DNA of 64,000 bases, from contig CAVPQS010000080.1 in assembly GCA_963707485.1 (NCBI GenBank), forward strand, positions 39,475-103,474. The letters run 5' to 3'. The notes under the pieces are model-generated. The model saw nothing but the letters and a program-made list of their open reading frames with translations. It ran no database searches and was not told where the DNA came from. The translations under genes and the position numbers were made by a program. Below are positions 14,819 through 39,000 of the stretch, piece after piece; the stretch's first letter is position 1, and the number at the start of each line of letters is the position of its first letter. Source of the DNA: an uncultured bacterium (GTDB lineage Bacteria; Zixibacteria; MSB-5A5; CAIYYT01).

Positions 14819-17800
14819 TTAGTGTCCCATGCAACTCTGCGAAACATCGGTTCCCAGAACACCCTCGAGGTTTGGTCCCTTGTCGAGAGTCTTGCGCACT
14901 GGCGCAAGTTGCTCGAGCGTGTTCGCGTCGTAGAGACGACCGTTGATCATCACATACTGTATATTCTCAGATTGTCTCAGGTCACTGAGCGGGTCACCGT
15001 CGATGACGATGATATCCGCCAATAGACCGGGTTGAATACTTCCCAGTTCATTGTCAAGGCCAATTGACCTTGCGCCCATCCACGTCGCACACCGCAGCGC
15101 TTCATGATTTGTCATCCCGCCCTGTTGCAGCATCCAGAGTTCCCAGTGCGCGCCCAATCCCTGAAGCTGCCCATGTGCGCCAAGCTCGACATTGCCGCCG
15201 CGATGCAAGATCTCCGTCGCAGTCTTGGAGAGAGCAAAATGATGATACTCTGAATCAGGCGCCATCGTCCTCCTGATCGAGCGCGGATCAATCACATAGC
15301 GCGGAACGAATCGCGCCAGTCGCTGATTCTCCCAGACATTGCTATGCTGGTACCAATAGTTTTCGCCAAATAAGCCACCATACCCAACGATCAATGTCGG
15401 CGTGTATCCGGTACCAAAACGGCTCAACAATTGCAGTTCGGGATCATAAAGCGGCGCTACCGGTATGGTATGTTCAAGCGTCGTATGTCCATCAAGAAGC
15501 ATCGTGATATTGTTGTTCAGAGTTGAACCACCTTCAGGAATAACCAGGATTCCCAGTTCCCGGGCGGCTTTGATCACCATCTGCCGTTGTTCGCGACGCG
15601 GTTGATTGTAACTCTTTACCGAAATCGCACCCCACGCGGCTGTGCGTTTGATCGCGCTAATCGCATCTTGATAATTGTTGATAACGGTTTTGAAATCGCC
15701 CTCGGCGCCATACAAAATAAGGCCCGTGCTAAAAACGCGCGGAGCAAGCAGAGCTCCCTGTTTCTGAAGTTCGTCGGCGGCAAAGATCATTTGCGAATTG
15801 TTGCTGGGGTCGTGAATCGTTGTGACACCAAAGGCAAGGTTGGCCAGATACGACCAAATTTGTTGAGAATATACAGATTGATTGCTGCTTCCCACATGGG
15901 CGTGAACATCGATAATGCCCGGCATGAGTGTCTTTCCCGCAACGTCGATCACTGTTGCGCCTGCCGGCACCGTAACCATGCTTCGCTCGCCAACCTCGAC
16001 GATTCGATTGCCTTTCACGTGCACAATGCCATCAGCAATGATCGTCAGATCATTCATCGGCAAGATATTCGCCCCGACGAAATAGAGATCGGTTGTTGGA
16101 ACATCCGCCTTTTCCTGCCAGCCAAGGTTGACTGCAGCAGGCTTATATGCCTTGGACGTATCTTTCGTTGTGTCCGCAGCCATCTTTGCAATGTCCGCAG
16201 TGACGTAACCCGGTCCGAGGTTCCACGACACAAATCTGCTGTCTGCCGACCAGCTTAGATAAGTACCGGCATCCTTCGAGAGTTGTTTGATCGGTAAGTT
16301 CCTCATTCCGGGGCTAATTTCAATTGGGGTGCTTACGTTTGGATAAGGCACGACGTATGATTGCCACAATTCTTCAAACGCAAGCCAGTTTTCGTTCGGC
16401 GACAAAACGAAGTCCCCCGCATGTTCCGAAACTGCGTGAACGCGGCGATCCGATCCAAGTAGATTGACGCTCACGAGAGCAGACTTCTCGCCTTCCCGGG
16501 AGAGAAGATAGATTCGTTTGCCATCGCGTGAAAATCGCGGCGTTTCGCCCTCACGTGTGAGAAACTGCGGATTTGATTTGCCGTCAGAAGCGGCAAGATA
16601 GATCCCCGGTTCTTCTTGCCACAATCGGCCGCGGAAACTATCCCCACCGCCGCGATGAAAGACGACTGATCTCCCATCTGGAGAAAAGTGGGCTGAAACA
16701 TAATGCCCCGGCTCGGCAACCACGTTGCGGTCATTCTGGCCACTAACTCCAATAGCACGAATCGTGCCGCCCGTAGTATCGTTCCAAGTGACGTAGACGA
16801 TTTCTTTTCCGTCTGTTGAAAGCGCCGGAGCGAACTCATAATGATCTGTCTGCCGCGTCAATCGAACTGCCGTCCCGGCCGGAAGCGCTTTTTTGTATAA
16901 GTAACCGAGACTCTGAAAGACCACTTCGCGCCCATCCGGCGTAGTCTGCGGCCAGCGAATTACCTTCACCGGAAAATCGGGCCCTCCGGCACTTTGCGAA
17001 AATCTGACTGCCTGAGCAACGGCCTGTTTGACATGCACCCGAAACGGAATTTCCATCGGTGTACCTGTTGCCACATCGACTCGCCAGATCTTGCCTTTCG
17101 CCCAAATGACGATGCTCTTGCCGTCCGGCGTCCAATCAAATCCCGGATGAACTCCAAAGAGCGTCCATGTCTCTTGCTGGTCTTTATCAAGTCCATCCCA
17201 AAGGTGTCGGACACTATTGCTGGCATTATCGAAAAGAGACAGAACTGATTTCCCGCGCACGCGCCGCACAAACGCCACCGTTGCCCCATCGGGGCTGATT
17301 TCCGGCCGGCACGCGCCGCCATTTATCTCAATGATGTTGCGAATTTCGTCAGTCTGTAAATCGAGTCGGCGAATGACAAAGATCGTGCCGTTAGGATCTT
17401 TGTTGTATTGGAAATAGTCTCCACCGGACATATCTTCTGACCAATACAGGTACTTGCCGTCCGGCGAAAATACCGGCTCATTGGCATCTTGTTGATCGTT
17501 CTTCCTCTTGGTCAATTGGATACCGGAACCTGATTCAGGTATACGGTACATCCACATTTCGCCGGCGCCCATGCTGCGCTGGCTGGTGAAGTGTTTTTTC
17601 GCAACGAAATATTCCCCGCTTGGGTGCCAACTCGGATTGTTGAGTAGTCGATAGTCTTCCTTCGTCAACTGGGTCCGATCGCTGCCGTCGGCATTCATCA
17701 TCCAAATATTATCACCACCGTCACGATCGCTGGTGAAGAGTATTTTGCTTCCATCGGGGCTGAAGCGCGGCTGAACCTCGTAAGGAAGTCCCCCGGATAG

Positions 17801-18082
17801 CAAAGTGGCCATGCCGCCGGAGATCGGCACACTGTAAATATCGCCAAGTAAGTCGAAGGCAAGATTCTTACCGTCTGTTGAGACATCGACGGAAATCCAT
17901 GTGCCTTCGGTCGCTTCAAACTCAAGCGTATCGCTGGGCACATGAGAGATGCTGACATCCCACTTACTCGCGGTTGAGTCCTTCTTGGTAACTGTCGAGT
18001 CGGCGCTGCGCGCGTCAGACAACTGGAATAAAGCCAGAGAGCACGCCGCAAGCGCGACTGCGAACCTTCTTGATCTGATCAT
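14819..18082 (-). CDS. Exported amidohydrolase with N-terminal TolB-like (PD40) beta-propellers
   Basis: Signal peptide; repeated P.FSPDG..I.F.S units; PGIIDVHAH, KSYNQPRR, GAHGQLQG, ADIIVIDGDPL; GGAGG RBS before ATG 18082. Confidence 0.88.
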   Translation of the reverse strand: MIRSRRFAVALAACSLALFQLSDARSADSTVTKKDSTASKWDVSISHVPSDTLEFEATEGTWISVDVSTDGKNLAFDLLGDIYSVPISGGMATLLSGGLPYEVQPRFSPDGSKILFTSDRDGGDNIWMMNADGSDRTQLTKEDYRLLNNPSWHPSGEYFVAKKHFTSQRSMGAGEMWMYRIPESGSGIQLTKRKNDQQDANEPVFSPDGKYLYWSEDMSGGDYFQYNKDPNGTIFVIRRLDLQTDEIRNIIEINGGACRPEISPDGATVAFVRRVRGKSVLSLFDNASNSVRHLWDGLDKDQQETWTLFGVHPGFDWTPDGKSIVIWAKGKIWRVDVATGTPMEIPFRVHVKQAVAQAVRFSQSAGGPDFPVKVIRWPQTTPDGREVVFQSLGYLYKKALPAGTAVRLTRQTDHYEFAPALSTDGKEIVYVTWNDTTGGTIRAIGVSGQNDRNVVAEPGHYVSAHFSPDGRSVVFHRGGGDSFRGRLWQEEPGIYLAASDGKSNPQFLTREGETPRFSRDGKRIYLLSREGEKSALVSVNLLGSDRRVHAVSEHAGDFVLSPNENWLAFEELWQSYVVPYPNVSTPIEISPGMRNLPIKQLSKDAGTYLSWSADSRFVSWNLGPGYVTADIAKMAADTTKDTSKAYKPAAVNLGWQEKADVPTTDLYFVGANILPMNDLTIIADGIVHVKGNRIVEVGERSMVTVPAGATVIDVAGKTLMPGIIDVHAHVGSSNQSVYSQQIWSYLANLAFGVTTIHDPSNNSQMIFAADELQKQGALLAPRVFSTGLILYGAEGDFKTVINNYQDAISAIKRTAAWGAISVKSYNQPRREQRQMVIKAARELGILVIPEGGSTLNNNITMLLDGHTTLEHTIPVAPLYDPELQLLSRFGTGYTPTLIVGYGGLFGENYWYQHSNVWENQRLARFVPRYVIDPRSIRRTMAPDSEYHHFALSKTATEILHRGGNVELGAHGQLQGLGAHWELWMLQQGGMTNHEALRCATWMGARSIGLDNELGSIQPGLLADIIVIDGDPLSDLRQSENIQYVMINGRLYDANTLEQLAPVRKTLDKGPNLEGVLGTDVSQSCMGH

Positions 18083-18175
18083 TTTAAGGGAACCTCCAAA
18101 AAACTTGACCATCGATCCTTCACACTGAGCGGTTTAGGACTGATGAGTAATAGCGAGTGAATACATGGGCCTCTT

Positions 18176-18468: not shown

Positions 18469-19125
18469 GTGACGCTACGCTTCATCGCATCAATTGTGTT
18501 GGTGCTTGCTGGTGTTGCCTTTTCTCAAGAGCACACGGAAAGAATGATGGCCGATTCTGCACAGCAGACTATTGACGAAGCGCTGGTGCGATCCCGCGCT
18601 GCAATCGATGAATTCGGCGTGACAGACTCGGCAATGTCCACAATTCAGGGTATTCTTTCAGAGTTGGCAGCGATTCCGGGTATCAAGTCTCGCGGGAAAA
18701 TGAAGGAACTCCATGGCAGTCCGACCATGGGTCGGGCGTTGTTGGCTTCCGAAAACGATTCCGGGATTTGCCTCTATGTCTCTTGGTTTGCCAAAGACGC
18801 AGAAACACCGGTTCATGATCACTTGACATGGGGCGTCATTCGAGTCCTGGAGGGCAAAGACAAGTACAGACATTGGAAGCGCGATACCGATACGAGGTCA
18901 GGCGAGATTGTTGTTAACAAGACAAACGAAAGAATCATCAAAGCGGGCGAATCTGTTTATTGGTTAGGACCACCGAATGACATTCACAGTCAGCAGTCTT
19001 TCGACGTGGAAGTCTGGGAATTGGTGATGACAGGACGAGATTTGTCATCGAATTACGTCAGTAAGAATCAGCAACGGTTTGATACGAAAACTGGTCGAGC
19101 GATTCCGAAGAAGTCTAACGAGTAA
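18469..19125 (+). CDS. Cysteine-dioxygenase-like cupin with signal peptide
   Basis: TPVHDHLTWGVIRVLEG and PPNDIHSQ (3-His cupin); N-terminal signal ending AFS; AGGAG RBS. Confidence 0.7.
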   Translation: MTLRFIASIVLVLAGVAFSQEHTERMMADSAQQTIDEALVRSRAAIDEFGVTDSAMSTIQGILSELAAIPGIKSRGKMKELHGSPTMGRALLASENDSGICLYVSWFAKDAETPVHDHLTWGVIRVLEGKDKYRHWKRDTDTRSGEIVVNKTNERIIKAGESVYWLGPPNDIHSQQSFDVEVWELVMTGRDLSSNYVSKNQQRFDTKTGRAIPKKSNE

Positions 19126-19184
19126 GCTGCTGCCGTCATTAAAAGGCGAATGCAAGCGCTGAGTCCTATTTTGGTCCATGTTAT

Positions 19185-19210
19185 AGGAAGTGGGGGGAAT
19201 CGAACCCCAG
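19185..19210 (-). repeat. Degenerate copy of the ssrA 3' end (distal att of element C)
   Basis: AGGAAGTGGGGGGAATCGAACCCCAG versus TGGAGGTGGGGGGAATCGAACCCCCG at 54845-54870 (3 mismatches in 26). Confidence 0.9.
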
Positions 19211-19274
19211 ACTCGCGTTGCGGGACCAGAGCTTACCCGGCACTGTGTCCAAATTGTGCCCGTTTTTTGTTGAC

Positions 19275-20504
19275 TCATTGATTGTACTTTGACCAGAATG
19301 CGAATTTCCGCTTATGAATGGACAACAGTGTTGCTTTGTAGTTTTCATGCTCCGCGATGATGCCAAGGGTGACAAGCTTTGGTGCGATTTGATCGAGCTT
19401 GCGCAAGTAGCGGATGCCGTGCGAATAGTACTTGGATATTCCCCTGCGTAGAATCGAGTCCAACAGGGCGCGATAGATAATTGTAACTACAAGATGTCTC
19501 TCATGCCGTTCAAATGTTCTTGCCCACGATACGAGATCGGGATAGATTTCTCCATTGATTTGATCACGTCTATCAATCACATAACGCTCAGCTACTCCGA
19601 CGTATTCCGTCTCAATCAGAAAATCGACGTTTGAGTAATTGAGCACGGTGTCTTGTTGAATCAGCTCGATTTCCCCATTCAGAACGTCGTCTTTCTGCTC
19701 CTGACCAACCGCGCTGAGCAACAACGAAAGTGTTTCGGCACTTCGGTACCGTCGAAAAATGCGCCACGCTGCTTGCTCTGCCCGGGACTGGTCCCCGATT
19801 CTTGTGGCAATATTCAGCAATAGGCGGTCTCTCGCGTCAGCCATGACCGTCTCCTCAGGCGGAACCCTTTCAAGCCAGCGGAGTGCGGTAATGGTGTCAC
19901 CAGATTCGAAATACACTTCAGCTATGTCTATGCAGGCCGCGGTCGACAAATCGGGCCACATCGTACGCCGCGCTCTTTCAAACAGCCCTGCATCCTTCAA
20001 TTGGCGGGCAATCATCTCAACGCTGAGGAACCAATGGCGTCTGCGGTATTCGCCTGACTCTTGTAATGCCAGTTCCCAGAATTCATCAGCCATGCGTCTG
20101 AGCCATGGTTCCGTCAGAAAGCTGTTTGCGGCTTCAATCAGAAAATCTCGAACCCCATATTCATCCTGCCGGTATAGACCCAGTATGACGTCATACAGCC
20201 ACCCTTTGTCCTCGCATTGGATGGCGTATCGCACAAAGAAATCCCGGGCCGAATATTTATAAACGTCACCGATTGAACCGTTTGAATCATCTGAATTTCC
20301 GAGCACTGCGCCATCTGTCTCTATGAACTCTCGTATCAGTTCGATTCCGTGCCGCGGATTCTCCACTACACTTTCTATCTCTTCAAGCACTGCTTCCAAC
20401 TCATGCGCGAACGGACCTGATTCACGGTAGTCGATAAACCTCTGCCGGCTCTTCAATGAGGCAAGCCGTCTTTTGACGCTCTTGAGTAGTAGCGCTTCGC
20501 TCAT
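19275..20504 (-). CDS. DUF6880-like helical-repeat protein
   Basis: VKRRLASLKSRQRFIDYRES..NSDDSNGSIGDVY..DEYGVRD..IYRALLDSILRRG.SKYYSHG..YL..H.RK.AFW. Confidence 0.65.
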   Translation of the reverse strand: MSEALLLKSVKRRLASLKSRQRFIDYRESGPFAHELEAVLEEIESVVENPRHGIELIREFIETDGAVLGNSDDSNGSIGDVYKYSARDFFVRYAIQCEDKGWLYDVILGLYRQDEYGVRDFLIEAANSFLTEPWLRRMADEFWELALQESGEYRRRHWFLSVEMIARQLKDAGLFERARRTMWPDLSTAACIDIAEVYFESGDTITALRWLERVPPEETVMADARDRLLLNIATRIGDQSRAEQAAWRIFRRYRSAETLSLLLSAVGQEQKDDVLNGEIELIQQDTVLNYSNVDFLIETEYVGVAERYVIDRRDQINGEIYPDLVSWARTFERHERHLVVTIIYRALLDSILRRGISKYYSHGIRYLRKLDQIAPKLVTLGIIAEHENYKATLLSIHKRKFAFWSKYNQ

Positions 20505-20538
20505 ATAATCTCAATCCTACGATATCAGTGTTGGATAC

Positions 20539-20960
20539 TCAGCCCGTAGCCAAGAGAGCAAGGCATCCCGGCAAGTCGCGAGCAAGCTCCATCGCCTCAG
20601 CTACCTCAGATTCTGTAATTGTCCCAGCGGCATCGTAAGCGACGATTGCTCTCTTCCGGCTAATCGCCTCGAGCGACAGGATCACTTCCGGAGCGGGGTC
20701 AATCGTAGACCTTAGAGACTGGATGGTTCGATAGTGATGGCCCGTCCTCCGGGAATTCGGTACCGGCTCGCGTGAAGAGCAATTGTCGCGCTGCCGAGGC
20801 AGGCATTGTAGGCAATAGCAAGTCCCCAATCGAGGGTGATTTCCTCTTTTGAAGCTTCAGCGATATCACGATCGATTTTGTTAAGCAGGTCCCTGATTTC
20901 CTGGCGACTTGAAGTATGCCTTTTGAGCCAGCCGTTACTTAACCAATCTTGCAAGGTCAT
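20539..20960 (-). pseudogene. HEPN-domain toxin, frameshifted
   Basis: MTLQDWLSNGWLKRH..AIAYNACL..YRIPGG continues in another frame near 20745 as GHHYRTIQSL..RKRAIVAYD; overlaps the end of the MNT gene. Confidence 0.7.
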
Positions 20961-21573
20961 CTTCGTTTCCAACTACAAATAGCTTTTCGGAGCCCAAGAC
21001 GGTGTTGAGAAAGTGGTTCTCGTCCCGAACCTTCTTCGAAAACTCTTTTCTCGAATATAGTGTTGGATTAACTGGCCGCCGCAAGGTTTCTTCAACCGGG
21101 TTGAGAATGGACACCAGTTCTCGAAACGACAGTGAGCCGATTGCCATAACGTCGATGTCGCTCGAACTGCGGTCGGTTCCGCCGGCGATAGAACCATAGA
21201 CCCAAACCACGTCGATATTCTTCTCCGCTATCGGACGGAGCACGTCGCGAATGACATCAGCCACTCCGAATGTCTTTGCAGCAATCGATTTCAGTTCACC
21301 AAATACGGGGCTTGCTGGATTAGCTTGGTAGAATTTCTGAATTCCGATTGACTCCATGTTGAGAATCCCAGCTTCGGTAAGTGACTTCAACTCTCTCTGA
21401 ACAGATCCGGGCGTATCACCCAAGAGTCTCACAGTTTCCCTGAAATAGAATCGCTTATCTGGATTCAGCAAAAACAAAGCAAGCACCTTTCTGCGAATCT
21501 TTGGGAAGAGTGCTTCTCCGATGCCGGATCCGACCCCGAGATTAGTCTCTCGCTTTTTTGCCTTCAATGACAT
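20935..21573 (-). CDS. HTH plus minimal nucleotidyltransferase (MNT) antitoxin
   Basis: N-terminal wHTH (GSVQRELKSLTEAGIL); VYGSIAGGTDRSSSDIDVMAIG (GS..DxD); start uncertain. Confidence 0.85.
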   Translation of the reverse strand: MSLKAKKRETNLGVGSGIGEALFPKIRRKVLALFLLNPDKRFYFRETVRLLGDTPGSVQRELKSLTEAGILNMESIGIQKFYQANPASPVFGELKSIAAKTFGVADVIRDVLRPIAEKNIDVVWVYGSIAGGTDRSSSDIDVMAIGSLSFRELVSILNPVEETLRRPVNPTLYSRKEFSKKVRDENHFLNTVLGSEKLFVVGNEDDLARLVK

Positions 21574-21835
21574 CAGTAACGCATCCGATTCTGAATATGA
21601 ATCAGCCGATACTATTATCGGAACGATTGTACCTAATTCGAGATCACCGGTCAATTACAGAATTCGTATGTGATAGTGATTTTGACCCCGGCTGGCATGT
21701 GACCAAATCGTGACAAGTTTCGTTCCACGTTATCGCTTGTTATTCGCCGTTATTGTTTGGCGGACGGGGGTTCTTGAAATTCGTCCGACTACAGTAGTCG
21801 CTGTACCTGATTGGATAACATAAGCTTAAAATAAT

Positions 21836-21849
21836 TGGAGGTGGGGGGA
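21836..21849 (-). repeat. 14-bp copy of the ssrA 3' end (C/B junction att)
   Basis: TGGAGGTGGGGGGA identical to 54845-54858. Confidence 0.85.
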
Positions 21850-22038
21850 GACGAAAATGGCCATCTTGGTAACTTCTTGACAACCACAGACTTGCAGCGC
21901 AACTAATTGAACGGCAGCACTTTTCAGCTTTTATTTGGTTTTGTTTGCTTCTGGAAAATGAGCCTGTTTTACACGCAAGTTGGCACAAATTTGGCACAAA
22001 CTACATTGGTCAAACTGCCCATTCCAAGCTCATGAAGG

Positions 22039-23406
22039 CTAATATATTTTGAGGAGCTCCTCCAAGGATATTACAATGCCATGTTCTCCTAAGGCCGCTT
22101 CCCGCTTTTTGAACAGGATTGATATTGGCTCACCGGTCTGGCTCTCCTCCCCCTGATGAAGCAACCTATGGCAATTGGGACAGAGCGCCACGACATTGCC
22201 GGGTGCATCCAAACTTACGTCGAACTTGTCTTGGAGCACCATCGGAACCAAATGGTGCGCTTCTACGTAGTTCTTTCCGGTCGCGCGTGATGTAAATGTC
22301 TTGTGTGTAGGATCAAGCATACAAGAAAAATCAGCTTCCACTAGCGCATTCTTCGCTATTCTCGGATCGCGCTTCCAGACTCGGCCGCTTACGTCATTCG
22401 AACTCGGTTTTTGGATGGGGCCGGAGGGTAAGTCGCGGGCTTCCGCAGTCTGGACCTGTGCCTGAAATAGTGATTCGTCGCTATCATCATCATTAGCAGC
22501 ACCGCCAATGAACGACAAGACCTTCTCCACGATGGGTTGTTCAGCACGATCTGCGGCAAACCATACGTTGGACCGTCCCATGCCACCCTTTCCCGTGGGA
22601 ATTTCGATACCGATCTGATCTCTTACACTCTCAGTCAAGAGAGTCTGATTGCCGTCGGTGGTAGTTATGTAGTATCCAAGCTCCTCGCCCCTATAAGTAC
22701 GCTCTGAGCCCTTAGGAGGGATCTGTCGCTTTCTATACACGGTGGCATTCTTGTACCAGCCTACGATCCGGCGGCGTTTTGAGTGAGGCGATTTAGAAAC
22801 GAATATAATAGTAACCCCATCCACCATCTCGTCATCTGCGGACGCGCCAAGACGTTCTATCCTAATCGATCCGTCTTCAAAGTCGTTCTTGGCCACCGGT
22901 TGGACATACCCATATAGTTTCCCTGCAAATGGTCTGAAATTCAAGATCTCGAAGCCGTAGCCGTGTTCATCTACATATCTGCCACCGCCCTCGATTCGAT
23001 CGGATTTATCCGGAGGAATTCCCTGATAGAACTTCATCCAGCCAATGTTGCAGAAGAGCACTTTCTCCGGAGCTAACAGTGGGCTTCTCGTATTCAGTTT
23101 GTCATTCGTCTGCACGACTAACAGCTTCGCATCTTTCGATATCGTAAATCTTAGGTCACAGCTTGAGTAAGCCAGCATCCGTTGGTCATTCAGCAAACTT
23201 CTCAATGCATCGGCATGCGCCATCTCTGATTTGAAAGCAAAATTACGTCTGCTATAAACTTGGCCATGCCAAGACGCTCTATTTCCAAGTTTCTTTATTG
23301 CTGAAACGTCGAGCGTTGCTGATTTACCGTTTGTCACAGCTTCTTCAATCAGAGTTGCAATGGCGTTCCTTATTCCGAGCCAAAATGCATCGTATTTGCT
23401 AGCCAT
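22039..23406 (-). CDS. Multidomain HNH endonuclease (McrA-like C-terminus)
   Basis: RDPRIAKNAL..YVEAHHLVPM..NVVALCPNCHRLLH; central FCNIGWMKFYQG..IVGWYKNATVYR domain. Confidence 0.85.
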   Translation of the reverse strand: MASKYDAFWLGIRNAIATLIEEAVTNGKSATLDVSAIKKLGNRASWHGQVYSRRNFAFKSEMAHADALRSLLNDQRMLAYSSCDLRFTISKDAKLLVVQTNDKLNTRSPLLAPEKVLFCNIGWMKFYQGIPPDKSDRIEGGGRYVDEHGYGFEILNFRPFAGKLYGYVQPVAKNDFEDGSIRIERLGASADDEMVDGVTIIFVSKSPHSKRRRIVGWYKNATVYRKRQIPPKGSERTYRGEELGYYITTTDGNQTLLTESVRDQIGIEIPTGKGGMGRSNVWFAADRAEQPIVEKVLSFIGGAANDDDSDESLFQAQVQTAEARDLPSGPIQKPSSNDVSGRVWKRDPRIAKNALVEADFSCMLDPTHKTFTSRATGKNYVEAHHLVPMVLQDKFDVSLDAPGNVVALCPNCHRLLHQGEESQTGEPISILFKKREAALGEHGIVISLEELLKIY

Positions 23407-23427
23407 TTCCGGACCCCTTTCCTGCTC

Positions 23428-24369
23428 TCATCCGGTATGAGCCGGCGGGTTCATCTTCTTCCACTTGGTATCAGTCCATTCGTATTTGAACGGATAGCCA
23501 AACCCGGCGGCTTGAAGTGGTTTCAACAAAAATTCTCCAATCGCTTTTACTAGCTGCGGAAAAGCAACACCGAAATCTTCAAGATCATTCCGGTTTATGA
23601 ACGCCTTCCACTGATTATTCTTATCCGTGGCGTCGGCAAATTCATGACTCAGGGCAAGAGGTATCTTCTCAGGAATCGGAGTGCCTCTGCGTTCGAATGT
23701 AGCCTTGATCGCTTGAACAAGAGTATCGCCGTCAAACGAAAATGTCTTAGCCAGAATGAAAACATCATAGAAATCTTTCATTCGACTGTTAGCCATTCCC
23801 AAAAACACCATCGACTGCAATTTCTCCGCGATCTGAGTCTCTTTGGGATAAGCTCGGATTCGAGGAGCCGGATATTGAAGCAATACCGGATAGCTGATGA
23901 CATTTGCTTTGGGGGTTACAGCATCACCGAAACCGACATCGATCTGGATTCTGATTTTGGCATTACCGAGAGTTACATTTACTTTCACCCGCTGTCCCGG
24001 GTACTCCTGATTTTCACGAATCTCTTCTATGTCAACGCCGTCGGCATCGAATTCAAGTCCATCCTTCTCGACCTCTGCCCGACATATCTCACTAATTGCT
24101 GCTCCGAGAGTTTCGGCTTCGGCCTCTCCAAAGCCAAGCAAGTCAAGATCACGAGTCGGTCGATGCACTTCACCTATCCAAATAGCCATCAGCATCGCAC
24201 CTTTGAGAATGAATCTGTCGGCGTGTTTAGATTTGGATAGCCGATACAAGAATCGTTCTATCGCATAACGTGTCAGGATTAGATTGAAATCCTCTTTACG
24301 TTCGCGACTGAGATTCAAGAGACGTTGACGAACTGAAGCATCGAGATCTGTAGGCTGTTTCTTGCTCAA
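23428..24369 (-). CDS. abiEii: AbiEii-family nucleotidyltransferase toxin (type IV TA)
   Basis: SVRQRLLN, YAIERFLYRLS, FILKGAML, RPTRDLDL, IDVGFGD, AEKL, NSRMKDFYD; TTG start overlaps the antitoxin stop. Confidence 0.9.
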   Translation of the reverse strand: MSKKQPTDLDASVRQRLLNLSRERKEDFNLILTRYAIERFLYRLSKSKHADRFILKGAMLMAIWIGEVHRPTRDLDLLGFGEAEAETLGAAISEICRAEVEKDGLEFDADGVDIEEIRENQEYPGQRVKVNVTLGNAKIRIQIDVGFGDAVTPKANVISYPVLLQYPAPRIRAYPKETQIAEKLQSMVFLGMANSRMKDFYDVFILAKTFSFDGDTLVQAIKATFERRGTPIPEKIPLALSHEFADATDKNNQWKAFINRNDLEDFGVAFPQLVKAIGEFLLKPLQAAGFGYPFKYEWTDTKWKKMNPPAHTG

Positions 24370-24968
24370 ACTACGGATTCCAAATATGGTTTCATGATAT
24401 TGGCGACCCTGCAGATTTTGGCGTATTTCCACAGATCATCCATCGTGCATTTACTAGTCCGGTGGCAATCGCGCAGTGCTTCAATGGCAACGTCTAGGCC
24501 TATCTTGTTTCTAAATTTGAAACAATCGGCGACGGTCTTAGCCGGATCATATACTCGGACTGTTACACCTTCGATTGTGTGTTGCTCAACTCCCGATGTC
24601 AGCGCTTGCCCTGAGTATCTGGCAATCCGTATAGGAATTCCCAGATCTCTTGGGCTTCGAGCTTTGTGGTCAATAGCCATCCAGATTTCATATGGCGATT
24701 GGGTTGTCAGACCGTGAAACCTAAGCGCAGAGAGCAGGCAGATTATCCCGGATGAAACCTGCTTGCTGGCCTCAGCTAGACTCCTGTTTTCAGACGGTTC
24801 AGTCTCAGGTAAAGTATAAAGTCCTCGTCCAATCCGACGTAGAAGACCCAGGCTATACAGTTCCTGAACATACTTGCGGTGTATACCGTGTTCATCCATG
24901 TCTTTCGGCCTGACGATACCCAGCCGTCTGACAATTCGAATAATCTGATCCGTAGTTTCCGCATTCAT
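24366..24968 (-). CDS. abiEi: AbiEi-family antitoxin and autoregulator
   Basis: RIGRGLY, ICLLSALRFHGLTTQSP, KTVADCFKFRNKIGLDVAIEAL, CRVANIMKPYLE. Confidence 0.9.
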   Translation of the reverse strand: MNAETTDQIIRIVRRLGIVRPKDMDEHGIHRKYVQELYSLGLLRRIGRGLYTLPETEPSENRSLAEASKQVSSGIICLLSALRFHGLTTQSPYEIWMAIDHKARSPRDLGIPIRIARYSGQALTSGVEQHTIEGVTVRVYDPAKTVADCFKFRNKIGLDVAIEALRDCHRTSKCTMDDLWKYAKICRVANIMKPYLESVV

Positions 24969-24989
24969 AATCAATAACAATATATCATG

Positions 24990-25023
24990 ATATGTCGGCA
25001 GATATTAATAACTGCCGACATAT
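24990..25023. promoter_or_regulatory. Inverted-repeat operator upstream of abiEi
   Basis: ATATGTCGGCAG-ATATTAATAA-CTGCCGACATAT, perfect 12-bp arms; AbiEi proteins are known to autoregulate through promoter inverted repeats. Confidence 0.75.
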
Positions 25024-25250
25024 TATACCACACTGAACAACACTGAGCAACAGAATTGCTGTTACTTCCTAGTGATCTTCCGAGCTTCGACCGGGTTATT
25101 CATGATCGTTGTGAGAACAAGAGTGGCACAGAGTGATTCTTGTGAATCATAACTCTGTAGACGATTGCAACTTACGGAATAGCCGAGGAGGTGTGACCAC
25201 CGAACCTGATAAGATCATATCATATTGTACAACAACGACTTACAAACTAT

Positions 25251-25276
25251 TGGAGGTGGGTGGAATCGAACCCCCG
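25251..25276 (-). repeat. 26-bp copy of the ssrA 3' end (B/A junction att)
   Basis: TGGAGGTGGGTGGAATCGAACCCCCG, 1 mismatch to 54845-54870. Confidence 0.93.
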
Positions 25277-25654
25277 ACTCGCTATGCAGGACAAAGGCTT
25301 ACGTGCCACTGTGTCCAAATTGTGACCGTTTTTGGGGGAGCCATCTTAACCAATAAGACCTGAGGGGTCCACAATTGAGTGACCTTAGTACACGGCAGAG
25401 GAGCAAGGAGAACGGTTTCAGATGGCCAGATCTGCACCTCGGCCGCTCGGAGGACTAATCCTTTTTTCAATCGTTTGGGCTATTGTCCGACTGTCGTATC
25501 TCTGTAAATTGAGTCAATGATGGAAAGGAACATCTTGTGACTTGGAAATGACCAGAACGACCTGCGTCGAAACTGCATTCAGCAAAGGGCATTTATCCAG
25601 AACACCAGCCGCCAAGAGCGTACGTATTGGATCCAAAACCAGGAAGGACTCGAC

Positions 25655-25867
25655 ATGAATAAATACAACCCTAAACACAATTTGCACACGGCCGAACGCC
25701 AAAACGAGGACATCGCTGAGTTGGCTCACTCGTTCTTCGAGACAGAAGGCAGAAGAAATGGCCACGACGTCGAACACTGGCTGCGCGCCGAATACCAATT
25801 GATAAATGGTGGCCTAACCGAGATTAAGGCCAGACAGCGCGCCACCCGAAAGCACACCGGCCAGTAG
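25655..25867 (+). CDS. DUF2934-family small protein
   Basis: IAELAHSFFETEGRRNGHDVEHWLRAE; AAGGA RBS. Confidence 0.8.
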   Translation: MNKYNPKHNLHTAERQNEDIAELAHSFFETEGRRNGHDVEHWLRAEYQLINGGLTEIKARQRATRKHTGQ

Positions 25868-27566: not shown

Positions 27567-27686
27567 ATTCAAAGACTACTATGAAGTTCTCGGTGTAGCA
27601 CGCGACGCGAGCGACGAGGAGATCAAGAAGGCCTTCCGGAGTCAGGCACGCAAGTATCATCCTGACGTCGCCAAAGACAAGGCTAG

Positions 27687-29041
27687 CAGTTTGCTGAAAA
27701 ACGGCATCTGGAGTCGATAATTTGCGGTTTCGCTGCTGCGATTTCGTGGATTTCGGATTTTGCGGAGGGAAGTGTGTTGTTTTCCGAGTGTTGTTAGGCT
27801 CAGCGGCCGGCTATCGAACCGGCATCGGCGTCAAGTTCTCTCTGTTTTATCTTCAGACCAGTCCCGGATCCGGTTTGAGTTTTGCCATTCGCAACAGATT
27901 GTAGGCAGCGCCGACCATCTCGGCGGCCAATTGCGTTCGCGCTCGACCTTTGTGACGGGTCTTGCGCAACCCGCCAATCGTTTTCATCCAGCCGAAGATC
28001 TCCTCGATGCGTTTACGCACGCGTTGACTAATCGCGTAGTCCTGGCGTTTCCTGATCCGGGCATCGACCGCCGAGCCGCCCGGACGTCTGTCGTTGGCCG
28101 CGATATGCGGCGCAATCTGCCGTTTCTGCAACATCTCAACAAACCCCTTCGTGTCATACCCCTTGTCACCGGCCAACGTCTTCGGTCGCCGGCGTTTCCT
28201 CGCTTGACGCTTCAACATCTGCTCCGCCGCTGACCACTGCGACTTGGTATCCGCCGCTGTTACACTAATGTCCAGCAACAGTCCATGCCTGTTCTCCATC
28301 AAGGCATGGCCATTGTAATACAGCTTCGCCTCCTTTCCCGAACCCTTCCGATACAACCGGCTCTCCGGATCGGTCGTCGATTGATGCGTCTCATTGCTCC
28401 GCTTCTCGCCGTGAAAGTTTACGTTCGGATTGCCTGGATCATCATCGTCATCAGACCGATCACTCTCCTTGCGCCGAAAACTCTTCAGCGAGGCCCAGGC
28501 CTCAATCAACGTCGAGTCCACCGTAAAATGATCGGCGCTCAGCAATCCCCCGTTCTGCGCTGTCTTCACCACACCATCAAAAAATAGCTTCCCGACCTCA
28601 TGCTCCAGCAGTCGCTGCCGATTCTTGCTGAACACCGTCGCGTCGAAACTGTCCTCGACCTGATTCATGTCCAGAAACCAGCGAAATAACAGATTGTAAT
28701 CCAACTGCTCGCACATCTGGCGCTCGCTGCGCACCGAATACAGCGCCATCAGCAGGAGAGCCTTCAACACCCGCTCCGGCGGAACCGATGGTCGGCCAGT
28801 ATGCGAATACATCGTGTCAAACACCGGCGATAACCGTTTCAGTTCCTGATCCGCCAACTTCTTAATCCTTCGGATCGGATGATCGGCCGGAACCCGCTGT
28901 TCCGGCGTCCACAAACTCAAAAATGTCTCCTGCCGATTCGACTCTCCGCGCATGGCAAACTCCTTCTACGAAAATCCGCCAAACGATAACCCCGCCTCTT
29001 TTACTTTTCAACTACAACAAGTAGAGTTTTTCAGCAAACTG
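27687..29041 (-). mobile_element. IS5-family insertion sequence, full length (1355 bp)
   Basis: Terminal IRs CAGTTTGCTGAAAAAC and GTTTTTCAGCAAACTG; CTAG duplication at 27683-27686 and 29042-29045. Confidence 0.95.
27853..28953 (-). CDS. IS5-family DDE transposase
   Basis: [31 protein letters not shown]; [25 protein letters not shown]. Confidence 0.93.
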   Translation of the reverse strand: MRGESNRQETFLSLWTPEQRVPADHPIRRIKKLADQELKRLSPVFDTMYSHTGRPSVPPERVLKALLLMALYSVRSERQMCEQLDYNLLFRWFLDMNQVEDSFDATVFSKNRQRLLEHEVGKLFFDGVVKTAQNGGLLSADHFTVDSTLIEAWASLKSFRRKESDRSDDDDDPGNPNVNFHGEKRSNETHQSTTDPESRLYRKGSGKEAKLYYNGHALMENRHGLLLDISVTAADTKSQWSAAEQMLKRQARKRRRPKTLAGDKGYDTKGFVEMLQKRQIAPHIAANDRRPGGSAVDARIRKRQDYAISQRVRKRIEEIFGWMKTIGGLRKTRHKGRARTQLAAEMVGAAYNLLRMAKLKPDPGLV

Positions 29042-29873
29042 CTAGTGCGGAAGATAGATTCAAGGAGATCAATGAGGCAAACGAAGTTCTCAGTGACCCT
29101 GATAGGCGTCGAAAATATAATGAGCTGTCGGCGGACTGGAACCATCAGGAACGGCAGTCGGCGCGACAGCAGGAGGGGTTCGGCGGAGGCTCCGGGCAGG
29201 CTTCCGAATTTCATTTTGAGGGCACGGGCTTCAGCGACTTCTTCGAACAGTTTTTTGGCAGCCACAGTCGCTCTTCTGGAGGCTTCGGCCGGACGCACAC
29301 GAATGGCAGGGCAAGCGCACAGAACGGTCAAGACATCGAGGGTGACATTCTGGTAACGCTCGATGAAATCTTGCATGGTTCTACTCGCACGATCGGACTG
29401 CAGCGTGCCGATCCCCGAAGCGGACAGTCGACCGAGGAGACATTGCGGGTGAAAATTCCACCTGGCGTTCGGGAATCACAGCTCATTCGTCTCACGAGCA
29501 AAGGCCAGGAAGGCATTGGCGGTGGCGCGCCAGGAAACTTGTATCTGCGCGTGAAGTTTGCTAAGCATCCCGATTTCCGGGTGCGGGGTGCCGACCTATA
29601 TTACGATTTGGAGGTGACCCCATGGGAAGCGATTTTGGGCGCCATAGTTCACATTCCGAGTCTTGATGGCAAGTTGGCTTTGAAGATTCCGGCAGGTACA
29701 GTGGCTGGTCGACAATTTCGCTTACGCGCGAAAGGTGTGCCTGCGGGCGACGGAATACGAGGCAACCTGTATGCTACTGTGTCCATCCAAGTCCCTTCGC
29801 ATACGACACCTGAAGAGAAGACTTTGTGGGAAGAGTTATCCCATAAATCGACTTTCAACCCGAGGAAGGACTC

Positions 29874-33600: not shown

Positions 33601-36600
33601 CTGTGGCTAGCTTCACCCTTCGTCGGCTGGTGGATCAGCCAGCCACTCGTGGCTGGCCAGCCGGTGTTATCTGAGGCGCAACAGACGTTTCTACGCGGCT
33701 TGGCTCGGCAAACATGGCGATATTTCGAAGTGCTGGTCAACGCGGAGGAACATTGGTTGCCGCCCGATAACTTTCAGGAAGGTCTGACGCCCGAGGTCGC
33801 CTCCCGCACTTCGCCCACCAACATCGGCATGGCCTTGCTGGCCAACCTGGCGGCGAGCGATTTCGGCTACCTCTCAACGGGCCAACTGCTCGACCGCACT
33901 GACAAAACCCTCACCACGCTGGAACAACTCGAACACTACCGGGGTCATCTCTACAACTGGTACGATACGCGCACGCTCAAACCGCTTCACCCACACTACG
34001 TGTCGAGCGTCGATAGCGGCAATCTGGCTGCGGCGTTGTTCACCTTGCGAGCTGGGTTGTGGGAATTGAAAAACCAACCCATCGTTTCGCCCCGCGTCTT
34101 TACCGGGCTGCAGGATACCCTGGAAGAGATCTCGTCTTCGACCATCGTTTGGCTCCGGGAAAAGTTGCAGGTATCGCCGCCGCTCAATCTCCCAACTGCG
34201 TTAGCGTTGCTCCAGGAACTCAGCCAAAATGTCGCCGCGCTGCCAGCCAACGACGACGTGAAACAGCAATGGTGGACGCAGGCTCTTGTCCAGCAGTGCC
34301 ACGCCGCGCGGGACGATTTGAAGTTGCTTACTCCCGATCCCGAGCAGTTCGATCATGTACCGACGTTGCAAGAGTTGGCCGGCGCGTCCACCGGGGGCGA
34401 CCGAGCTGTCGAGCGTATCCGGCGGATCGATCAACTTGCTCAGCGTTGCACCGAGTTGGCCGTGATGGATTTCGCCTTCCTGTACGATCCGGCCCGCGAT
34501 TTGTTATCGATCGGGTACAACGTCACCGACCGTCGCCGCGATCCCTCGTATTACGACCTGCTCGCCTCGGAGGCGCGAGTGGCGAGTTTCATTCTCGTGG
34601 CCCAGAACCAGTTGCCGCAGGATCATTGGTTTGCCTTGGGTCGGCAGTTGACCACCCACGCTGGCGCGATGGCGTTGTTGTCGTGGAGCGGCTCGATGTT
34701 CGAGTACCTGATGCCGTTGTTGGTAATGCCGACCTACGAGCACACGCTGCTCGATCAGACCTACAGAGCGGTCGTGGCCCGCCAGATTGAATACGGCCGC
34801 CAGCGCGGTATGCCGTGGGGCATTTCCGAGTCGTGCTACAACTTCACGGACGCCCGCGGCGTTTATCAGTATGGTGCGTTCGGCGTGCCGGGGTTGGGGT
34901 TCAAGCGCGGTCTTGCCGACGATCTGGTCGTCGCGCCGTATGCGTCGGTGATGGCGTTGATGGTCGCGCCCCGGGAGGCATGCCAGAATCTGGAAATGCT
35001 GTCGGAGAGTGGTTATCGCGGCGCATACGGGCTGTATGAAGCGATCGATTTCACACCCGCCCGCGTGCCCCGCGGCAAGACCTGCGTTCCGCTCCGTAGT
35101 TACATGGCGCATCACCAGGGGATGAGTTTCCTGGCGCTCACGTACCTGCTCTTGGACCGGCCTATGCAGCGCCGGTTCCTCTCTGATCCGTACTTCAAAG
35201 CGTCCGAGCTGTTATTGCACGAACGTATTCCCAAGGTCGTTTCCCCACTTCAGCCGCACGCGGCGGAAGTCAGTGCCTCGCGAAGGCCGATGTCAGTCGC
35301 CGAAACCATGCGTGTGTTCTCCTCACCGTACTCTCCGATTCCCGAGGTGCATCTGCTGTCCAATGGCCGCTATCACGTCATGGTCACCAACGCCGGGGGC
35401 GGGTATAGCCGGTGGAAAAATCTGGCGGTCACGCGGTGGCGCGAAGACGCGACGTGCGATGGGTGGGGCACGTTCTGCTATCTGCGCGACATCGCCACGG
35501 GCGCGCTCTGGTCGTCGGCATATCAACCGACGCGCCGGCCGTCGAGGAAATACGAGGCGATTTTCGTGCAGGGCCGCGCTGAATATCGCCGCCGCGAAGA
35601 GGACATCGACGCGCATACGGAAATCGCCGTATCGCCGGAAGACGACGTCGAAGTTCGCCGTGTTACGTTGACGAATCGCTCGCCCCAGTCCCGCACTATC
35701 GAGCTGACCAGTTACGCGGAAGTTGTCCTCGCTCCAACGAGCACCGACCTCGCGCACCCGGCCTTCAGCAATCTGTTCGTACAGACAGAGATTCTCCATG
35801 ACTTGCAAGCCATTATGTGTATGCGTCGGCCGCGCGCACCCGGTGAGAAACCACCGTGGATGTTCCATCTGATGACCACGCAAGGCACACTGGCAGGCGA
35901 CGCGTCCTACGAAACGGATCGGGCCAAATTCATCGGTCGCTGCCGCTCCGTCGCCCATCCGTTCGCGTTTGACAAGGTCGCTCCGCTATCCAACACTGAT
36001 GGCGCAGTGCTCGATCCTATCGTCGCGATTCGACAGAGCGTCGTCATCGAACCCGACACTTCGGCCAACTGGCACATCATCTCCGGTATGGCCCAGACGC
36101 GCGCGGCGGCGTTGGCGTTGATCGCTAGGTATCGCGACCCCAGCATCGCGGGGCGCGCGTTCGAGATGGCTTGGTCGCACAGCCGACTTGTGTTGCGCCA
36201 GGTGGAGACGACCGAGGCCGAAGCCCAGTTGTATGTGCAGTTGGCCAGCTCGGTCATTCACGCGAACCCGCTCCACCGCGCCGGCACCGGCATCCTTACC
36301 CGCAATCAGCTTGGCCAGTCCAGCTTGTGGGCCTTCGGGATATCTGGCGACATACCGATCATCCTTATGCGAATCGCCGACATACATCGGATCGATCTGG
36401 TAAAACAGGTGCTCCAGGCCCATGCCTACTGGCGCGAGATAGGACTGGAAGTCGATTTAGTTATCCTAAATGAAGATTTCTCCGGCTATCGTCAAGTTTT
36501 GCAAGACCGCATCTTGGGCTTGATCGCCGCTGGCACGGAGGGACACCTGGTGGACAAGCCCGGCGGGATCTTTTTGCGGCGTAGCGAACAGTTGTCGGAG

Positions 36601-37645
36601 GAAGAGAGGGTGCTATTGCAGACGGTCGCGCGTGTGATCCTCACCGACGGCGTCAAGACCTTGGCCGAGCAGGTTGAGCGGCGGGCGCCAGTTGAGCGGA
36701 AGATTCCGCACTTCATCCCGACGCGGTCGATGCTGCCAGCGACAACATCCACGCCGGACTCACGTGAGCGTGTCTTTTTCAACGGTCTGGGCGGGTTCAC
36801 GCCCGATGGACGCGAGTACGTGACCTCACTCGCGCCCGGACAGACTACCCCCGCACCGTGGGCCAACGTGATAGCCAACTCCCAGATCGGCACGGTGATC
36901 ACGGAAAGTGGTGGGGCCTATACCTGGGTGGACAACGCCCACGAATTCCGGCTCACCCCCTGGTGCAACGATCCCGTAGGCGACACCAGCGGGGAGGCGT
37001 TTTACCTCCGCGACGAGGAAAGCGGTCAATTCTGGTCGCCGACGGCCTTGCCTGCGCGCGGGACCGGCACATACGTCTGCCGACACGGTTTTGGCTACAG
37101 CGTGTTTGAGTACACACAATTAGGAATCAGCACAGAAATATGGACCTATGTCACGTTGGACTCGCCCGTGAAATTGCTGGTGGTCAAAGTGCGGAATTGC
37201 TCGGACCGGGCAAGGCGCCTGTCGGTCACGGGTTACTGGGAGTTGGTCCTCGGCCAGTGGCGGCACGCAAACCTGATGCATGTGGTCACCGAGATCGACC
37301 CGACTACGGGTGCTTTGTTCGCCCGCAATGTGTACAACCGCGAGTTTGCCAATAAGATTGTTTTCATCAACGTCAGCGACGCGGCGCGGACCATTACCGG
37401 CAGCCGCACTGAGTTTCTTGGAAGTAACGGCTCGCCAGCCAGTCCCGCCGCGATGAGGCAAACGCAACTTTCCGGCCAGACGGGCGCTGGCCTCGACCCC
37501 TGCGCGGCACTGCAGGTACCCTTCGACCTGGCGGAAGGCCAGGAGCGCGAACTGGTTTTCGTGGTGGGAGCTGGTAACAATATCGAGGAAGCCCACCAAC
37601 TTCTCCGACGGTTCGGCAGCCCGGCTAGTGCGCGGCTAGCCCTAG

Positions 37646-39000
37646 CAGTTTGCTGAAAAACAGCATCTGGAGTTGATAATTTGCGATTTCGCTGCTGCGA
37701 TTTCGAGGATTTCTGATTTTGCGGAGGGAAGTTTGTTGTTTCCCGAGTGTTGTTAGGCTCAGCGGCCGGCTATCGAACCGACATCGGCGTCAAGTTCTCT
37801 CTGTTTTATCTTCAGACCAGTCCCGGATCCGGTTTGAGTTTCGCCATTCGCAACAGATTGTAGGCAGCGCCGACCATCTCGGCGGCCAATTGCGTTCGCG
37901 CTCGACCTTTGTGACGGGTCTTGCGCAACCCGCCAATCGTTTTCATCCAGCCGAAGATCTCCTCGATGCGTTTACGCACGCGTTGACTAATCGCGTAGTC
38001 CTGGCGTTTCCTGATCCGGGGATCGACCGCCGAGCCGCCCGGACGTTTGTTGTTGGCCGCGATATGCGGCGCAATCTGCCGTTTCTGCAACATCTCAACA
38101 AACCCCTTCGTGTCATACCCCTTGTCACCGGCCAACGTCTTCGGCTTCCGTCGTTTCTTCGCTTGACGCTTCAACATCTGCTCCGCCGCTGACCACTGCG
38201 ACTTAGTATCCGCCGCCGTTACACTAATGTCCAGCAACAGTCCATGCCTGTTCTCCATCAAGGCATGGCCATTGTAATACAGCTTCGCCTCCTTTCCCGA
38301 ACCCTTCCGATACAACCGACTCTCCGGATCGGTCGTCGATTCATGTGTCTCATTGCTCCGCTTCTCCCCGTGAAAGTTGACGTTCGGATTGCCTGGATCA
38401 TCATCGTCATCAGACCGATCACTCTCCTTGCGCCGAAAACTCTTCAGCGAGGCCCAGGCCTCAATCAACGTCGAGTCCACCGTAAAATGATCGGCGCTCA
38501 GCAATCCCCCGTTCTGCGCCGTCTTCACCACACCATCAAAAAATAGCTTCCCGACCTCATGCTCCAGCAGTCGCTGCCGATTCTTGCTGAACACCGTCGC
38601 GTCGAAACTGTCCTCGACCTGATTCATGTCCAGAAACCAGCGAAATAACAGATTGTAATCCAACTGCTCGCACATCTGGCGCTCGCTTCTCACCGAATAT
38701 AGCGCCATCAACAACAGCGCCTTCAACACCCGCTCCGGCGGTACGCTCGGACGTCCCGTCGACGAATACATCGTGTCAAACACCGGCGATAACCGTTTCA
38801 GTTCCTGATCCGCCAACTTCTTAATCCTTCGGATCGGATGATCGGCCGGAACCCGCTGTTCCGGCGTCCACAAACTCAAAAATGTCTCCTGACGATTCGA
38901 CTCTCCACGCATGGCAATCTCCTTCAACAAAAATCCGCCAAACGATAACCCCGCCTCTTTTACTTTTCAACTACAACAAGTAGAGTTTTTCAGCAAACTG
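37646..39000 (-). mobile_element. IS5-family insertion sequence, full length (1355 bp)
   Basis: Same IRs as the 27687 copy; CTAG duplication at 37642-37645 and 39001-39004. Confidence 0.95.
37812..38912 (-). CDS. IS5-family DDE transposase
   Basis: Near-identical to 27853-28953. Confidence 0.93.

Follow-up and report, generated by a model that had tools for sequence, protein, structure and literature searches.

Tandem integrase-less elements bounded by attachment-site arms downstream of the tmRNA gene of an uncultured member of the Zixibacteria

How can two genomic islands have both ends in common and no cargo? This question is raised by a stretch of 64,000 nucleotides (hereinafter, the window; positions 39,475 to 103,474 of contig CAVPQS010000080.1, assembly GCA_963707485.1) from the genome of an uncultured bacterium of the Zixibacteria, in which an islet of 2.7 kb, denoted B, and an island of 29.6 kb, denoted A, lie downstream of ssrA, the gene for transfer-messenger RNA (tmRNA). 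The genome under study (G000) is a 3.655-Mb assembly of 112 contigs that is 97.5% complete, and all the genomes with which it was compared are metagenome assemblies as well. We propose, with a probability of about 0.7, that A, B and probably a third element, C, which separates the two, are non-autonomous elements resembling the cis-mobilizable elements (CIMEs), each consisting of attachment-site (att) arms and cargo, that are inserted or excised at the ssrA core by an integrase from outside; the elements are taken to be non-autonomous because the integrase linked to these arms is encoded beside ssrA in relatives and was not found here.

The common ends and the ssrA gene

The blastn search with the ends against the whole 3.655-Mb assembly aligned the left ends (19182-19267 and 25248-25333) at 83.7% identity over 86 bp (72/86, E 4e-20) and the right ends (21698-21855 and 54708-54864) at 74.7% over 158 columns (118/158, E 1e-22), in agreement with the manual counts of 69/83 and about 114/152 in the first-pass annotation of this locus; no further copies of either end were detected in the genome except for the ssrA 3' end itself. 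As that annotation also stated, the similarity ends at a repeat motif (Table 1), and the cargo inward of this motif is unrelated between A and B; in the blastn results and the alignments, the homology of the islet and the island does not reach into the cargo.

The outer 24-28 nt of the left ends and the outer end of the right ends are copies of the 3' end of ssrA, every common end bearing a copy of the last ~25 nt of this gene. A 20-nt probe from the ssrA T-arm and acceptor matches three sites in the window (19189, 25255 and 54849; 0.03 expected by chance), a partial copy of 14 nt is present at the junction of C and B, and all the displaced ssrA 3' fragments are in direct orientation. The intact tmRNA gene is located at one end of the array, with island A directly abutting its 3' end, which is the integration target (attB). 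The right ends are attL-type junctions, composed of the core and a P' arm, and the left ends are attR-type junctions, composed of a P arm and a displaced core. When the locus is read in the same direction as ssrA, its parts follow one another as ssrA-core-P'(A)-A-P(A)-core-P'(C)-C-P(C)-core-P'(B)-B-P(B)-core-flank, a hallmark of repeated site-specific integration at the 3' end of a single gene. The tandem array thus comprises A (29.6 kb), C (3.4 kb) and B (2.7 kb), none of which has an integrase, and the integrase-less segments total 36 kb in the window. The islet and the island that had been recognized initially are both real, but a third element, with its own, different arm, occupies the intervening 21850-25250. 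Pfam scans of 19185-54845 detected no relaxase, integrase or type IV secretion family; none of the open reading frames (ORFs) of the window matches PF00589, and tblastn with four integrases yielded nothing at E<=0.1. In island A, likewise, no integrase was detected with Pfam or in the tblastn search with the four integrases at the same threshold.

The arms themselves have a well-defined anatomy. The direct repeat GGTCAC-N5-GGTCAC is present in both the P and the P' arms, in the same orientation, and was identified, with at most one mismatch, in 26/26 of the aligned left ends (L) and 11/11 of the aligned right arms (R). The P arm, of ~60 nt, and the P' arm, of ~140 nt, flank a core of ~25 nt that is identical to the T-arm and acceptor end of tmRNA. 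The consensus of the P arm consists of AAAAACGGTCACAATTTGGTCACA, a spacer of about 40 nt and the core GGGGGTTCGATTCCCCCCACCTCCA, and that of the P' arm consists of the core, an AT-rich stretch, a hairpin and, at about 125 nt from the core, GGTCACGATTTGGTCACA. The left and right ends do not resemble each other, are directly oriented and have copies solely at the ssrA locus.

Given the T-arm-like hairpin in the 85-bp left end and its conservation, at about 80%, across families, this end might be considered a functional RNA or a regulatory repeat, such as a tRNA-like or tmRNA-fragment gene, a terminator or a promoter. Such an assignment appears very improbable: RNAalifold, applied to 24 left ends, detected no conserved fold but only 4 pairs, all in the copy of the T-arm/acceptor core, with 0 compensatory changes, which indicates that the conservation is at the level of the DNA sequence, as expected of protein-binding sites. 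At the gathering threshold, Rfam reports the intact tmRNA only, and the most conserved block is the GGTCAC repeat, which is also present in the P' arm beside the integrase gene of relatives. The arm repeats and the core most likely represent the arm-type and core-type sites of a lambda-like (heterobivalent) tyrosine integrase.

The presence of two copies of each end on one contig and in the same orientation might also suggest local duplication of the ends of a single island within G000, followed by deletion or replacement of the interior. We consider this scenario highly unlikely, as the first-pass annotation had already argued, with regard to a recent duplication, from the divergence of the ends: each end is closer to ends of other genomes than to its partner in the window. 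The left end of A is 86.6% identical to an end from the genome G002 and 84.1% identical to the left end of B, and the right end of A is 85.5% identical to an arm from G011, which lies beside ssrA and next to an entirely different cargo, compared with 72.7% identity to the right end of B. Furthermore, the partner ends are merely 84% and 75% identical, the same arms bound unrelated cargo in many genomes, and the junctions fall exactly at the copies of the ssrA core.

Table 1. Features of the ssrA array, in the order in which they follow the tmRNA gene (window coordinates)
Feature	Position	Strand	Evidence
Intact tmRNA gene ssrA	54842-55203	minus	Rfam RF00023, 172 bits (gathering score 47); ARAGORN tmRNA, tag VNQLNGNNYAIAA
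attL of A (R_A): ssrA core 54845-54869, P' arm, hairpin, repeat GTCACGTTTTTGTCAC at 54709-54724	54703-54869	minus	nhmmer R profile, 157 bits, model positions 2-168; motif scan
Island A cargo	25341-54702		Pfam scans
attR of A (L_A): P arm with repeat GTCACAATTTGGACAC at 25311-25326, displaced ssrA core 25251-25276 with 1 mismatch	25251-25340	minus	nhmmer L profile, 80 bits; 28-nt ssrA match at 96%; alignment with ssrA
Element C, 3.4 kb, integrase-less	21861-25250	minus	Pfam; P-arm alignment
C gene, AbiEi-like	24366-24980		Pfam
C gene, AbiEii	23428-24432		Pfam
C gene, DUF7664-HNH protein	22039-23406		Pfam
Degenerate ssrA core, C/B junction	21836-21860	minus	First 14 nt (21836-21849) identical to ssrA; diverges from 21850
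P' arm of B (R_B): hairpin and repeat GTCACGATTTGGTCAC at 21699-21714	21696-21855	minus	nhmmer R profile, 136 bits; motif scan
B cargo	19275-21654	minus	Pfam
B gene, Pol-beta-type nucleotidyltransferase	20935-21654		Pfam
B gene, 146-aa partner, frameshifted	20539-20972		tblastn with the G059 partner protein matches two frames
B gene, DUF6880 protein	19275-20504		Pfam
attR of B (L_B): P arm with repeat GGCACAATTTGGACAC at 19245-19260, displaced core 19185-19208 with 2 mismatches; outer edge of the array	19185-19274	minus	nhmmer L profile, 78 bits; alignment with ssrA

The arm family and its integrase in related genomes

In 16 of 60 relatives, which belong to 5 families, the match to the L end is not confined to the core but continues far past it, and such matches often recur several times behind ssrA; the exact pattern of motif plus core was found at 43 places in public genomes, the record titles naming Zixibacteria, Ignavibacteria/Ignavibacteriales, KSB1, GN15 and others. 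We compiled a census of arrays from 12 genomes, in which the segments were delimited by left-end matches and ssrA; the ssrA ends of G044, G052 and G059 were added from the nhmmer profile scan, and two spurious 'segments' of 0.2 kb, produced by right arms that cross-matched the left-end profile, were removed by hand. Neither a tyrosine or serine recombinase nor an integrase remnant was identified in 24 of the 26 L-bounded segments, which range from 1.1 to 29.6 kb. The absence of the integrase is based on whole-genome PF00589 scans of five genomes, tblastn with four integrases, and Pfam, which covered 225 of the 242 ORFs of at least 80 aa (none of the 17 omitted ORFs belongs to a counted segment); for the segment of G044, the absence is based on tblastn alone. 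The two exceptions are elements of 45 kb and 26 kb that adjoin ssrA, encode an integrase and resemble integrative and conjugative elements (ICEs). Paired ends thus do not always flank an integrase. The first-pass annotation had named two findings that would refute its idea of a minimal, cargo-agnostic chassis, an integrase between all paired ends and homology extending into the cargo, and neither was observed.

The cargo of the segments is varied and includes a Tad pilus operon, two-component systems, ArsR/ACR3-like genes, a set of GH15, glucose dehydrogenase and aquaporin genes, radical-SAM genes and genes for large surface proteins, together with Fic and other genes that resemble defence genes; in one relative, seven segments together carry up to about 46 kb. 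In this respect, the notion of a chassis holds, the same arms being combined with unrelated cargo, and it can be refined: the chassis corresponds to the att arm pair of a lambda-type integrase specific for the tmRNA gene. Two of the left ends (L034:11113-11202 and L046:1390-1479) keep the P arm, and their core stops after TTCGATT(A), to be followed by unrelated DNA; these broken cores may have arisen through recombination with a secondary site, and they hint at a crossover within the T-loop.

A tyrosine integrase of 336-365 aa adjoins ssrA in G002, G012 and G016 and is present as a pseudogene in G044. The species-genome scan with the alignment of three integrases recovered 13 loci with at least 58% identity, some of which are the query genomes themselves; ssrA is present at 12 of the 13 integrase loci, and in 11 of these 12, a full-length R arm lies between ssrA and the integrase gene. 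At seven loci, ssrA is followed by the arm and the integrase gene starts 38 nt on, co-directional with ssrA; at five loci, the integrase gene is inverted, its stop being 2-15 nt, and once 1.7 kb, away from the arm. At the inverted loci with a full-length arm (from the set L095-L106), the arm itself is unchanged. The AlphaFold model of the integrase (10-sequence alignment, predicted local distance difference test score 82) consists of an N-terminal three-strand sheet and helix (residues 3-46), a linker, and the core-binding and catalytic domains, and its best Foldseek matches are the full-length lambda Int structures 1z1b, 1z1g and 5j0n, over 343-348 columns with 18-19% identical residues. Judging by this predicted architecture, the N-terminal domain would bind the GGTCAC repeats.

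The integrase-bearing elements adjacent to ssrA in G002 and G043 (L031-L035) resemble ICEs or integrative and mobilizable elements (IMEs) and encode Replic_Relax and TrwB/TraG-like proteins, as well as serine recombinases and a variety of defence genes, namely HamA with an adjacent DEAD/DEAH-box helicase gene, restriction-modification, DndB-like and SIR2.

The genome G000 encodes four PF00589 matches: two Xer-like genes, a 177-aa fragment and a gene on contig C89. The latter (L048:882-2195) is a tyrosine integrase of 367 aa that adjoins tRNA-Leu(CAA), that is, it belongs to a separate island at another tRNA gene, and the T-arm of this tRNA resembles the ssrA core enough for a weak match to the R profile. 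We considered the C89 integrase as a helper and rejected it, given its location beside tRNA-Leu(CAA) and its 21-27% identity (tblastn) to the ssrA-linked integrases.

Strain differences and the mobility of the elements

Do the integrase-less elements still recombine at the ssrA core? Public sequencing runs were compared as contigs, for a single 7-kb stretch (18800-25800) in four runs. Contigs from run X2 bridge the B/C (21258-21913) and C/A (24977-25800) junctions with 0 differences, so the arrangement is not an assembly artefact of a single sample. In run X3 (same study, different sample), both the flank and islet B are present at about 99% identity, with 27 differences in 2791 nt. One X3 contig of 2326 nt matches 21593-21849 and then agrees at 29 of 30 positions with 54859-54888, in the body of ssrA; hence, that strain lacks A and C (33 kb) and has B immediately next to ssrA. 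The position of the break coincides precisely with the point at which the degenerate core of C departs from ssrA. Whether A and C were gained here or lost in X3, integrase-less elements recombined at the core within about 1% divergence. The X3 sequence of B has an extra T behind 20744, within the overlap of the two reading frames of the partner gene; a deletion of 24 nt relative to the window, at 20556, is also found in that gene. The runs X4 and X6 contain only short pieces of C-like contigs, at 90-99% identity and with other flanks, and were set aside as too fragmentary to use.

Islet B has a history of its own. Homologues of its cargo were detected in 28 of the 284 other genomes of the class, from 8 families, and in 0 of the 12 congeners. 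Arms are located beside the cargo at 5/5 of the B-cargo loci fetched from other genomes, and the position in the array varies: in G078, the order is left end, islet of 2.6 kb, right end and ssrA, that is, the islet lies directly at ssrA, and in G124 and G081, it is internal to the array. Short versions of 1.4 kb, in G052 and G059, include only the nucleotidyltransferase and the 146-aa partner. To judge from these comparisons, islet B behaves as a unit that is kept together with its arms across several bacterial families.

In element C, the P arm (about 21861-22000) is of another type than those of A and B, with TTTGTGCCA repeats at about 21975-22000. Over 165 nt, the core and P arm of C (21836-22000) align at 75% identity with the distal end of an ICE-like element of 26 kb in G043, the integrase of which adjoins ssrA. 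Whereas A and B each keep a full P' arm along with the P arm and core, C retains the P arm and a degenerate core on one side and the core alone on the other. With regard to an origin of the elements by decay of an ICE or IME, the P arm of C matches the ICE-like element of G043, and tblastn detected no remnants of an integrase or transfer genes in the window.

Under the proposed scenario, the elements would insert one after another into the 3' end of ssrA at the core, and a lambda-like integrase would recognize the GGTCAC repeats in both arms along with the ~25-nt core. This integrase would be supplied from outside, in trans; alternatively, the elements might move jointly, by 'accretion', with an integrase-bearing neighbor that later leaves. 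We infer the route of mobilization from the comparative data and the strain polymorphism, and the binding of the integrase to the repeats from the predicted architecture of the enzyme.

Several observations weigh against this scenario. No cognate integrase was found in G000 (G043 query at 1e-20, G002 query at 1e-30; tblastn of the window at E<=0.1), and accordingly, nothing can move here now with the enzymes of this assembly. In the integrase of the relatives, Pfam recognizes just the SAM-like and the catalytic domain, and no domain is named in residues 1-90 at E<=1. Among the 284 genomes of the class, island A was not found as a unit, the 2.3-2.7 kb beside each arm yielding only scattered short matches. 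Islet B shows signs of decay, namely the 2 mismatches in the core and the frameshifted partner gene; the core of C is degenerate, and the alignment with the P' arm of the G043 element reveals no recognizable P' arm beyond it. A full-length R arm follows the core at only 7 of the 26 scanned L-arm ends, and the 1.1-kb segments of G013 have the L arm and no P' repeat, so that two intact arms are not universal. Finally, the difference in X3 could reflect loss of A and C via the short direct repeats of the core rather than an integrase event.

The decay of B and C (core mismatches, frameshift and a lost P' arm), the many junctions that lack a distal P' arm and the lack of a cognate integrase in G000 would all fit dead relics, that is, once-autonomous islands that lost the integrase in place and in which the arms merely have not eroded, with nothing to mobilize them, as in the first two steps of the textbook CIME model minus the later mobility; this is the standard origin of CIMEs (PMC5704250). 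It is nevertheless unlikely to be the explanation here. Neither the window nor any of the integrase-less segments yielded an integrase remnant by tblastn at E<=0.1; the integrase gene normally lies 2-38 nt from the arm repeat, and yet, in A and B, the repeat is intact beside unrelated cargo; B keeps its arms and cargo as a unit in other families, at varied positions in the array; and the presence of A and C differs between strains that are ~99% identical in B, which leaves little time for two integrases to vanish without a trace.

The interpretation of A, B and probably C as non-autonomous elements served by an outside integrase could be taken further. It is possible, if doubtful, that the ssrA locus functions as an integron-like cassette platform, at which a helper-borne lambda-type integrase would insert, excise and reshuffle integrase-less cassettes with arms of ~60 nt and ~140 nt; some of these cassettes, such as the 2.7-kb islet, would then be long-lived selfish hitch-hikers that spread between families as units.

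Comparison with known systems and additional features of the locus

The first-pass annotation had described the elements as derivatives of an integrative element resembling miniature inverted-repeat transposable elements (MITEs). The derivation from integrative elements is supported by our results, and the likeness to MITEs extends to non-autonomy, with only the ends that are recognized by an enzyme encoded elsewhere being kept. However, MITEs have inverted terminal repeats and target-site duplications, are dispersed in many copies and are moved by a transposase, whereas the ends described here are direct, mutually different and located only downstream of ssrA, and imply site-specific recombination. 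The CIMEs are the better analogy because the ends are direct, not inverted. As defined with reference to Pavlovic 2004 and Bellanger 2011 in later articles, the CIMEs of the ICESt1 family keep attL and attR, lack integration and transfer genes and are arranged in tandem at the 3' end of the target gene (PMC5704250, PMC3146451), and they are described as products of decay in place (PMC5704250). The elements A and B similarly keep attL and attR without integration or transfer genes; unlike the CIMEs, at least one of them, islet B, has been retained along with its arms in several families of bacteria, and the elements reported here are known from sequence alone.

The closest precedent is provided by the ssrA island arrays of Dehalococcoides. 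According to McMurdie et al. 2011 (PMC3146451), these islands form tandem arrays within about 100 kb downstream of ssrA, with about 85 bp conserved around a 20-bp repeat and with insertion in the T-loop region; 15 of the 31 islands have no integration module and are proposed to be cis-mobilizable, having moved by accretion; and the enzyme is a 540-aa serine recombinase, DsiB, encoded in a six-gene module. In the arrays analyzed here, by contrast, the linked enzyme is the 336-365-aa lambda-type tyrosine integrase (PF00589), with arm repeats on both sides of the core and no DsiB-type module; the integrase-less segments are the large majority (24/26) and are as short as 1.1 kb; and the host lineage is different. 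The att sites of lambda Int share with the present system the three-domain organization of the integrase, as modeled, and the presence, in both the P and the P' arms, of repeats that differ from the core (about 45 and about 125 nt away from it), although the arm sites differ in sequence and number and the integrase is only 18-19% identical to lambda Int.

Islands of the type collected by Islander/TIGER extend from an intact tDNA to a displaced 3' fragment, with tmRNA as the most enriched target, and Islander demands that every island, including every member of a tandem array, contain an integrase gene (PMC4383910). The elements at the ssrA locus of G000 have the same combination of an intact tmRNA gene and a displaced 3' fragment, without an integrase inside; under the Islander requirement, elements such as A, B and C would be filtered out by design, rendering the arrays invisible. 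The tycheposons of Prochlorococcus (bioRxiv 10.1101/2020.12.28.424599) are cargo elements at tRNA and tmRNA genes, where later integrations push the older ones outward, and their islands hold partial tRNAs and remnants. Of the tycheposons defined in that study, 937/937 encode their own site-specific integrase (910 are tyrosine recombinases, and the rest are large serine recombinases), whereas parts that have no integrase are regarded as degenerate remnants that lack clear boundaries, in contrast to the segments delineated here (bioRxiv 10.1101/2020.12.28.424599).

Taken against these precedents, the arrays represent hitch-hiking mobile DNA of a kind already known, found here in a lineage of bacteria that has been little studied; new are the tyrosine integrase family with two-arm att sites, the different lineage, the dominance of integrase-less segments and an element kept as a unit across families. 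A shallow search of the literature for integrases or tmRNA in Zixibacteria, which is a weak basis for calling the family unpublished, yielded no paper naming the lineage among the matches listed. Among the cargo hidden in such arrays are the operons for an N-type ATPase and a Tad pilus, a phosphoketolase, and arsenic-resistance-like, two-component and toxin-antitoxin or defence genes. If the arms of ~60 nt and ~140 nt suffice for mobilization, they would provide a simple rule for spotting hidden mobile cargo in uncultured lineages, a compact and testable integrase/att pair aimed at a universal single-copy gene, and a case in which to test whether integrative elements that are not autonomous can persist as separate families.

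The cargo of island A includes grpE- and hpf-like genes, two IS5-type transposases, BrkB-like and PRC-barrel proteins, a cyclic beta-1,2-glucan synthase-like gene, an N-ATPase operon with AtpR and a phosphoketolase. The GC content of the island is 58-62% over 31-52 kb, compared with about 50% in the flanks, and the ATPase operon and phosphoketolase (41357-52047) fall in this GC-rich part. The glucan synthase-like gene is split by an insertion sequence copy at ~37.6-39.0 kb into a part of 2331 aa (GT2 and GH94 supersandwich) and a part of 540 aa (GH94 catalytic). Within the large glucan-synthase ORF, ARAGORN predicts a tRNA-Gly(GCC) of 92 nt at 33726-33817; this prediction is probably false, given that Rfam at the gathering threshold reports no tRNA there.

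The non-coding gap between the right end of A and the first cargo gene contains, at 54504-54610, a repeat of ~100 nt with a strong GC hairpin. This repeat has 3 copies in G000 (on C80, C105 and C68), with 91-95% identity, and copies at 85-93% identity in several relatives; in G002 and G012, these lie a few hundred bases from left ends.

In the outer flank, the PD40/amidohydrolase gene (14819-18112) is on a different contig in G003, and searches of four other congeners did not find it; owing to this scattered synteny, the original flank of the array could not be fixed. The IS5-type element, which encodes a transposase with DUF772 and DDE_Tnp_1 (366 and 372 aa), is present in the window in two full copies, at 27677-29045 and 37642-39005, and in one partial copy, at 402-989.

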